Virus record (IMG/VR): IMGVR_UViG_638341089_000007
Length of the DNA: 13,148 bases
Reading direction: 5' to 3' (one strand)
Source: a virus
Lineage: Monodnaviria > Loebvirae > Hofneiviricota > Faserviricetes > Tubulavirales > Inoviridae
The position numbers and the translations under genes are program-made. This document shows positions 4,730 through 5,168 of the stretch, piece after piece. The notes under the pieces were generated by a model. The model ran no database searches, had not been told where the DNA came from, and saw nothing but the letters and a program-made list of their open reading frames with translations. Position 1 is the stretch's first letter; each line of letters starts with the position of its first letter.

Positions 4730-5044
4730 TTACTTTCCTTGTGTTGGTTTAGTAGTGGATTGTTGAGCTTTTTCTAAAAGCCTTTTTGCTTTAGATGTGT
4801 CCAAACCATCTTGGGCAAAGCCTTGTTGCTTATCATTCTGTTTTTGTTCACTTTTTTTTGGCGTATTCATCAGTATATACTTTGACTCGTTTTGTTTATC
4901 TCGATGACTTACTTTTTGTTTAAGTTTTGCACAAACTAGAACGTGCAGTGTTGGTAATACTGCACGTTTGTACCATTCGTGGTACTTAATCCTTTTGTTT
5001 GGCAGACATGAGATCTTCTGCTGCATCTTTAGAGTAGTTATCAA
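4730..5044 (-). CDS. Hypothetical small protein, 46-104 aa depending on start; prophage accessory operon
   Basis: Maximal ORF from TTG at 5044; ATG alternatives at 5026 (overlaps the 60-aa gene) and 4870 (46 aa, leaves hairpin 4940-4968 intergenic). None has a clear Shine-Dalgarno, so the start is uncertain. C-terminal tail GLDTSKAKRLLEKAQ. Confidence 0.45.
   Translation of the reverse strand: MITTLKMQQKISCLPNKRIKYHEWYKRAVLPTLHVLVCAKLKQKVSHRDKQNESKYILMNTPKKSEQKQNDKQQGFAQDGLDTSKAKRLLEKAQQSTTKPTQGK
4940..4968 (-). promoter_or_regulatory. Perfect inverted repeat ACGTGCAGT-N9-ACTGCACGT; candidate operator or attenuator/terminator
   Basis: 9-10 bp perfect palindromic arms (4941-4949 / 4959-4967) just downstream of the stop of the RHH-like gene on the - strand; no strong T-tract follows. 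Confidence 0.4.
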
Positions 5045-5168
5045 TCAGATAACCTAAAATCTCTGTCCATGTAATTGTTTTTCCTAGTTTTACACTGGCA
5101 TTTATAGCCAGTCGTTCTAGTTTCATTTTTCTTTCTTCCGTCACGTTATAAGTCGTGCGCTTTGCCAT
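4986..5168 (-). CDS. Putative ribbon-helix-helix (CopG/Arc-like) transcriptional regulator, 60 aa; candidate phage repressor
   Basis: ORF-track ORF divergent from gII; pattern consistent with RHH: beta strand RTTYNVT, helix A EERKMKLERLAINA, turn GKT, helix B WTEILGYLIDNY. Placement resembles the divergent repressor of CTX-type inoviruses. Fold assignment is by eye. Confidence 0.5.
   Translation of the reverse strand: MAKRTTYNVTEERKMKLERLAINASVKLGKTITWTEILGYLIDNYSKDAAEDLMSAKQKD

Follow-up and report, generated by a model that had tools for sequence, protein, structure and literature searches.

A predicted ribbon-helix-helix regulator in the rstR position and a candidate (+)-strand origin core next to it in a tandem filamentous prophage of Escherichia coli

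The RS2 region of the Vibrio cholerae phage CTXphi is arranged as ori(+) in ig-1, rstR, ig-2 and rstA; ori(+) is adjacent to rstR, and the nick made by RstA falls between G and T in a hairpin's apical loop (PMC4439123). Eight rstR alleles have been studied, each of which represses only its own ig-2 promoter (PMC11509585). For the Ff phages (M13, f1, fd), M13 gpII nicks CTTT/A in the first loop of the origin core, and both loops are part of the recognition site (PMC11765958). In YpfPhi, the gene YPO2273 has been described as an RstR homologue and proposed as a repressor of replication (PMC4266046). UPphi inoviruses integrate at dif as tandem repeats, with gII and gV >85% identical to those of YpfPhi and the remaining genes IKe/I2-2-like; the reverse-strand open reading frames (ORFs) beside dif were labelled ‘unknown function’ (PMC7307601). 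That description is without mention of a repressor or hairpins, and the uses of ‘origin’ found in it do not concern a replication origin. Here, a 13,148-nt stretch of DNA (IMG/VR record IMGVR_UViG_638341089_000007; hereafter the window, meaning the whole stretch analyzed) was compared with these systems. It begins in the E. coli yneE-tam-hipBA region and continues into a filamentous prophage that is integrated at dif in tandem copies, and the elements in question are a 60-aa regulator gene divergent from gII and the palindromes directly 3' of it. The comparison makes it likely that the gene encodes a ribbon-helix-helix (RHH) regulator in the position of rstR and that the palindromes form the core of the (+)-strand origin, as adjacent yet separate parts of one replication/immunity module. 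Both elements are ordinary parts of integrating inoviruses that were previously unannotated.

The regulator gene (4986–5168, minus strand) encodes the protein MAKRTTYNVTEERKMKLERLAINASVKLGKTITWTEILGYLIDNYSKDAAEDLMSAKQKD, which is labelled a hypothetical protein in RefSeq (WP_001335098.1). The protein matched phrog_2503 with an E value of 4e-34 and had no match in Pfam or NCBIfam. With HMMER, 65 relatives were recovered in a full scan over 1.8 billion cluster representatives, nearly all 60–90 aa in length, with the family consensus pattern KRTT-x-x-I-x-x-ERK-x-KLER-x-AI...G-x-x-x-KWTD-x-x-NYLID-x-Y. A preliminary description of this DNA had noted that the ORF fits an RHH pattern, and fold prediction agreed: the AlphaFold2 model made with the family alignment (predicted local distance difference test, pLDDT, 95.3) was extended at residues 1–10 and helical at 11–28 and 34–59, with a five-residue turn between the helices. 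This monomer model has the N-terminal strand, two helices and short turn of the RHH fold, a fold of about 45–50 residues. The alternating polar and hydrophobic residues of the N-terminal RTTYNVT appear compatible with the paired-strand dimer of the RHH class. In size, predicted strand-helix-helix order and a G-x-T turn before helix 2, the protein would resemble small RHH repressors such as Arc and Mnt of P22, CopG, Omega and ParG, but no significant sequence similarity to them, or to any curated RHH family, was found for the window protein. Matches to the ParG Pfam family were sub-threshold (E = 0.019) and limited to 7 of 49 relatives, and the best PDB profile was TTHA0139 (E = 0.18); weak as they are, both agree with the RHH model. 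Because these profile matches are sub-threshold, the assignment rests on the structure model and not on curated-family membership, and on that model the protein very probably has an RHH fold.

The position of the gene is that of an RstR-type regulator. The initiator gene gII (5338–6390, plus strand; Phage_CRI and G2P_X_C, Pfam E values of 6e-69 and 5e-29) starts at GTG 5338 behind a GAGG ribosome-binding site, the start at 5296 in the mechanical ORF list being wrong; the regulator and gII are therefore divergent, as the preliminary description had it, across a 169-bp control region (5169–5337). Phages of six genera have a homologue in the place of rstR that is likewise divergent from gII. By tblastn, matches of 41% identity were obtained in CTXphi IB1617, CTXphi VC106 and pre-CTX, where the gene carries the label ‘environmental RstR; CTXphi transcriptional repressor’, and the ‘RstR-like’ genes of the Vibrio anguillarum phages VAI1/2 were homologous as well. 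In Yersinia enterocolitica, Actinobacillus equuli, Aeromonas and Salmonella, a family member always lay 135–140 bp from a divergent Phage_CRI/G2P_X_C gene, so that a gene immediately upstream of and divergent from the initiator is common to these, the window, the Vibrio VAI phages and CTXphi. A blastn search of the region against the phage collection returned I2-2 gII as the sole match.

The same slot can hold an unrelated regulator. In 20-odd viral contigs of YpfPhi/CUS-like phages, whose gII is 84–91% identical to that of the window, the place between palindrome and gII is taken by an HTH_3 protein of ~149 aa that is non-homologous but encoded in the same direction. YPO2273 of YpfPhi/CUS-1, itself such a ~149-aa HTH_3 protein, likewise has this hairpin on one side and a gII of 85% identity on the other, but its cassette, of about 650 bp, is a different one, and the divergent control region, which belongs to the swapped cassette, is non-homologous in the YpfPhi-like phages as well. 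RHH and HTH_3 cassettes are thus exchanged between an identical hairpin and a closely related gII, with the HTH_3 gene in place of the RHH gene, and this swapping corresponds to the allelic-cassette behaviour known for rstR/ig-2 in CTXphi. The homology to CTXphi/pre-CTX and VAI genes and the substitution by an RstR-type gene bear out the earlier suggestion that the ORF occupies the repressor slot of integrating inoviruses.

The likeness to CTXphi RS2 extends to the order and orientation of the parts (origin hairpin, leftward repressor, divergent control region and rightward Phage_CRI-type initiator), to a regulator cassette that is exchangeable between otherwise similar phages, and to tandem prophages at dif. 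However, the studied RstR alleles (ET, classical and Calcutta) are helix-turn-helix (HTH) proteins of ~110 aa whereas the window protein is a 60-aa RHH protein, and the window gpII and RstA could not be aligned by BLAST. The named rstR allele of the CTXphi homologue could not be assigned with the published primers (PMC11509585), which do not match the homologue. Primers for rstR6 (PMC11509585, Table S2) encode MKKKYTSLRV... and ...KTDLKR*, termini like those of the RHH family, which is an unconfirmed lead; when viral contigs were scanned for exact matches to the rstR6 primer, none was found. Were rstR6 a member, its repression of its own ig-2 promoter (PMC11509585) would lend the RHH family experimental support by homology. 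From the fold model and the synteny we infer DNA binding and repression, and the 60-aa protein is probably a regulator of gII.

Directly 3' of the regulator gene, the preliminary description had reported a perfect palindrome, and this was confirmed at 4941–4967: ACGTGCAGT (4941–4949), GTTGGTAAT (4950–4958) and ACTGCACGT (4959–4967). With 10-bp arms, the hairpin (hairpin 1, the predicted (+)-origin nick hairpin) spans 4940–4968 on the plus strand, with the stem AACGTGCAGT/ACTGCACGTT and the loop GTTGGTAAT, and the palindrome ends 17 nt from the stop codon of the regulator (4986–4988). None of 200 shuffles gave such a match with two mismatches allowed, and none folded as well as single-stranded DNA (ssDNA; z = -5.1). 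The gap between hairpin 1 and the stop codon is filled by a second perfect palindrome that the earlier description had missed, GTACCA-TTCG-TGGTAC (palindrome 2, 4970–4985, plus strand), an inverted repeat that is predicted to be bound by gpII and to correspond to the beta/gamma repeat of Ff (hairpin E/A2). Both lie in a conserved origin island delimited by blastn blocks (4926–4996, plus strand), with a left homology boundary at about 4925 among UPphi variants.

Comparison of I2-2 and over 30 loci whose gII has an identity of at least 84% revealed that hairpin 1 follows gII and not the regulator. The 27-nt hairpin motif, including the loop (GT[T/A]GGTAAT), was identical in every fetched locus of this gII class with any regulator cassette, and between the window and the YpfPhi-like phages blastn homology was restricted to two blocks, 4926–4996 and gII from 5339. 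At 56% gpII identity, I2-2 (Lineavirus I22) had a near-identical hairpin (AACGTGCAGT-GTATGTAAT-ACTGCA(A)CGTT). By contrast, the Y. enterocolitica prophage and If1, whose RHH proteins are 57–63% identical to that of the window, had a different hairpin pair (GTTCGGG-GTTCTGTGACA-CCCGAAC, TTT, ACCGTGG-TTTC-CCACGGT), and the Yersinia gpII gave only a 44-aa local BLAST match to the window gpII (32% identity, E 0.003). The hairpin is therefore identical, near-identical or different as gpII is close, intermediate or matched only briefly and remotely, irrespective of the regulator.

Palindrome 2 differs between phages by compensatory changes that preserve its symmetry, with GTACCA/TGGTAC in the window, GTCTCA/TGAGAC (YpfPhi-like), ACCGTGG/CCACGGT, GTATGG/CCATAC and, in M13, TGTTCCA/TGGAACA, and its place is held by different yet palindromic sequences in If1, Yersinia, Actinobacillus, Salmonella, M13 and IKe. 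A hairpin followed by an inverted repeat was found as equivalent pairs in six other sequence types. In M13 the two elements read GAGTCCAC-GTTCTTTAATA-GTGGACTC then TTGTTCCAAACTGGAACA, and in IKe, whose record annotates viral-strand origin stem-loops, GAGTCCAC-TATGTTTAATA-GTGGACTC then TTGTTGCATTTTGCAAC. The window shares with these origin cores two adjacent hairpins, a T-rich first loop with ...TAAT/AATA, ending ...T(A)AATA at the 3' arm, a following (C/T)TTG (TTTG/CTTG) and a short second palindrome, and its initiator is in the same Pfam families. It differs in unrelated stem sequences, in a loop of 9 nt instead of 11, in a gpII only 23% identical to that of IKe, and in that the place of the AT-rich Ff enhancer (domain B) is held by an opposite-strand regulator gene. 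The ori(+) of CTXphi is larger (167 bp, with several hairpins and HU-dependent; PMC4439123) than the window island of ~70 bp, and the 3' arm of its nick hairpin ends 103 nt from the stop codon, which the window island abuts.

In M13 and CTXphi (nick hairpin ACCCCCGT-CTAGTATT-ACGGGGGT), the reported nick, when mapped onto the sequences, falls 4 nt before the 3' arm, which by analogy would place a nick in the window at G4954/T4955, or at T4955/A4956 if the loops are aligned on AATA. Since the hairpin tracks gII, palindrome 2 lies beside it and the layout is that of Ff, IKe and CTXphi, the pair is most likely a gpII nick hairpin with its binding site, and the placement of the packaging signal (11173–11232) and attP (11951–12047) elsewhere also favors a (+) origin over another role. 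From the layout and the joint occurrence of hairpin and gII, we infer the nick position, gpII binding and origin activity, and with good probability the palindrome is the core of ori(+). The gII product is the presumed enzyme acting on hairpin 1, and the gene the presumed target of repression.

Binding sites for the regulator are better sought in the control region. The motif TGAACTCA occurs three times in the 169-bp spacer and four times in the 13-kb window, where 0.47 would be expected. Repeat 1 (5216–5223) lies in the spacer of the sole leftward promoter-like site, a sigma-70-like ATGATA-16-TATACT facing the regulator (5202–5229, minus strand; a consensus match only); repeat 2 (5240–5247) overlaps a TTGAAC -35-like hexamer that, judging from the sequence, faces gII; and repeats 3 and 4 are a tandem of TGAACTAC (5279) and TGAACTCA (5287) at 5279–5294, all on the plus strand. 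In one UPphi variant (L020), about 17 intergenic positions differ and none falls within the four repeats (estimated chance ~0.03). Other family members have their own 2–3 repeats of 7–12 bp in the regulator–gII spacer, mostly TGCAT(G/A)C-like. Arrays of 7–8-bp or tetramer repeats are the binding sites of Omega and ParG, and the candidate operators of the window, short repeated motifs in the promoter region, are of a similar kind. The TGAACTCA repeats at 5216–5294 are plausible binding sites for the regulator, and on sequence grounds more likely operators than the palindrome, although their assignment is weak.

The preliminary description had instead offered the palindrome as an operator for a dimeric regulator or as an attenuator separating the regulator from the downstream genes, and neither proposal was upheld. 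That an RHH dimer binds the palindrome 3' of its own gene is suggested by a perfect inverted repeat beside a regulator gene, of the kind that dimeric regulators often bind. However, the hairpin is identical in phages with a non-homologous HTH_3 regulator and different in phages whose RHH protein is 57–63% identical, it lies outside the promoter whereas RHH proteins usually bind short tandem or inverted repeats inside promoters, and it resembles the nick hairpins of Ff, IKe and CTXphi, which together make an operator highly improbable. A main role of the two hairpins as terminator or attenuator of the regulator mRNA, insulating the minus-strand accessory ORFs downstream, draws on the folding of both in minus-strand RNA directly after the stop codon (-23 kcal/mol, z -3.2), on the tag ‘pot. 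transcription termination’ given to the origin stem-loops in the IKe record, and on downstream ORFs that differ between variants. An intrinsic terminator has a GC-rich stem followed by a U-tract, but both strands lack a U-tract after each hairpin (CUAGUUUGUGC being the tail of the minus-strand RNA) and a terminator scan was negative at 4940–4985; nor would termination explain why the hairpin, loop included, is conserved with gII across regulator cassettes and downstream genes. This reading is improbable as the main explanation, and the hairpins may also have a minor or secondary terminating role for the regulator mRNA.

The strong ssDNA hairpins on the packaged strand, and the fact that the Ff (-) origin lies just upstream of the (+) origin, could also point to another ssDNA signal, a (-)-strand origin or a packaging signal. 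Yet right after gIV there is a long hairpin with homology to the morphogenetic signal annotated in I2-2, the hairpins of the Ff (-) origin are much longer, the sequence upstream of 4925 is unconserved even among UPphi variants, and the loop and layout match (+) origin cores, so such a role is quite improbable. As for the protein, an RHH fold could also belong to an accessory factor other than a gII regulator, such as a TraY/TraM-like origin-binding factor or an antitoxin. No neighbouring gene is a toxin partner, and the ORFs downstream are variable; what is conserved is the divergence from gII, a repeat-bearing spacer of ~135–170 bp and the rstR layout, and a repressor-type HTH_3 gene substitutes for the RHH gene. 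Nor do the RHH gene and the type of origin hairpin vary together, which speaks against an accessory role specific to the origin. A function of this kind is thus unlikely, and a regulator of gII beside a (+) origin remains the preferred interpretation.

Several observations weigh against this interpretation. The loop likeness to Ff is short (GTTGGTAATA vs GTTCTTTAATA), and no experimental data on the UPphi, YpfPhi or I2-2 origin were found in the literature searched. Most relatives use TGCAT(G/A)C-like repeats, and a single CAATGCAATAT in the window (5184–5194) resembles the CTX-env repeat, so the assignment of TGAACTCA as operator is tentative. The sigma-70 promoter scan did not rise above the shuffle background (2 sites vs 3.4 expected). 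Finally, the RHH gene is also carried by If1 and, in a frameshifted copy, by I2-2, which is described as non-integrating (PMC7307601), so the protein may control the level of replication and not act as a strict lysogeny repressor.

The gene in If1 (NC_001954) is a complete 63-aa RHH homologue, 57% identical, at 5119–5310 on the minus strand, unannotated within the ‘major intergenic region’ and directly after the origin-like hairpin pair. The adjoining If1 region, covering 5388–5768 (minus strand), 6052–7086 and 7316–8429 (both plus strand), contains ‘ORF348’, a TnpB (OrfB_IS605 and Cas12f-like TNB), and, at 5388–5768, an IS200-type Y1 transposase, so an inserted IS200/IS605 element separates the RHH gene from gene II. 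The If1 record shows gene II (‘ORF320, homologous to R-pyocin’) as split by a frameshift; its identity to the gpII of the Y. enterocolitica prophage is 70–88%. In I2-2 (NC_001332), the RHH gene lies between the hairpin and gII, at ~2716–2916 on the minus strand, and its frame is broken in the deposited sequence by a single frameshift (MKKPVRTTASITTEKKKNLSDTAIRISTSTGVQVTWTD / LNYVIENYTELAEKKMIKELKKKGGV), which is either a sequencing error or a pseudogene; neither the gene nor the hairpin is annotated in the record. Palindrome 2 is degenerate in I2-2, which keeps an IKe-like second-hairpin remnant (CTCTTGTTGCAAAATCGCAACG) at ~2556–2577. In Actinobacillus equuli (CP103811), the region 1712–6195 is an array of at least two tandem repeats with a period of 2417 bp, each unit lacking structural genes and comprising the RHH gene, gII, gV and an ORF of 93 aa, and resembling an RS1-like satellite or a truncated prophage array.

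A working model of the module can be proposed. The RHH dimer would bind repeats within 5169–5337, the best candidates being the TGAACTCA copies, and would act there as repressor of the gII-gV replication operon and probably also of its own promoter, keeping the integrated or episomal phage at low replication and conferring allele-specific immunity against phages with the same cassette. Once repression is relieved, gpII would bind palindrome 2 and nick the plus strand in the loop of hairpin 1, at about 4954–4956. The nick would prime rolling-circle synthesis, which would run rightwards over the regulator gene, gII and the remaining genome and, in a tandem array, stop at the next copy's hairpin (~13239–13267, just past the window), releasing one genome length of plus strand.

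As for the surrounding prophage, the segment 3749–4453 recurs at 12048–12752, giving a period of 8299 bp, and the prophage is present in 46 complete E. coli genomes (≥80% coverage). Judged by gene content and layout against Shapiro and Putonti (2020; PMC7307601), it is a UPphi901-type inovirus. Downstream of the origin, the variable accessory region contains a 46-aa ORF (4730–4870, minus strand; Prokaryotic Genome Annotation Pipeline annotation). A 104-aa ORF in the same region (4730–5044, minus strand; phrog_6875, a 98-aa profile) overlaps the 3' end of the regulator gene and crosses both hairpins; it was rejected as a real gene and is probably an over-called extension of the 46-aa ORF, because its frame is closed in most relatives. 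No reading frame across the hairpin was conserved among the relatives compared. The accessory region, from about 4871–4925 leftwards, is wholly different among UPphi variants that are otherwise 92–99% identical (L012, L016, L019 and L020), and this break at the left edge of the origin island fits the formation of hybrid genomes at the origin in mixed tandem prophages.

The attachment region (3653–3684 and 11951–12047) is CTX-type in look, with a dif-like site GGTGCGCATAA-TGTACGACTCG-TTATGTTGAAA of 11-nt centre and an inverted dif-like partner GGTTCGCACAATGACGTTATGCTAAA on the other strand; the two fold as a long ssDNA hairpin (-33 kcal/mol, z -6.4), and the host/phage junction is the left edge of the XerC arm. 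The near-perfect hairpin of ~60 nt at 11173–11232, directly after gIV, is a likely packaging signal by its homology to the I2-2 ‘morphogenetic signal’, and a strong 20-bp hairpin at 11563–11607, between the plus-strand accessory ORFs 11253–11561 and 11679–11912, may be a (-)-strand origin or a terminator.

In the literature searched, no report linking rstR with a ribbon-helix-helix protein was found, and the RHH regulator in UPphi, in some CTXphi/pre-CTX alleles, VAI, If1 and I2-2 seems to be undescribed, as does the location of the UPphi/YpfPhi/I2-2 origin. These results suggest corrections to the annotation of If1 and I2-2, and suggest that some ‘RstR’ alleles of the cholera toxin phage are RHH and not HTH proteins. 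A far broader view, which we regard as doubtful, is that the phrog_2503 RHH family forms a widespread, unrecognised second structural class of inovirus immunity/replication repressor (in Enterobacterales, Pasteurellaceae, Aeromonas and Vibrio), including some CTXphi/pre-CTXphi ‘rstR’ alleles and the unannotated If1 and I2-2 genes. Because the RHH gene has the origin core on one side and the gII promoter on the other, a place held in Ff by the replication enhancer, its transcription in the direction of the nick hairpin, or binding, could on the same doubtful view couple repression directly to origin firing, beyond gII transcription. Hundreds of genomes of E. coli, Salmonella, Klebsiella, Citrobacter and Yersinia carry UPphi-type prophages, and for these the assignment of regulator and origin would provide a testable switch for phage production. 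It would also predict where the junctions of hybrid phages from mixed tandem prophages lie, and explain why UPphi and YpfPhi share only gII/gV and a 70-bp island: origin and initiator would move as a unit, while the immunity cassette between them is swapped.

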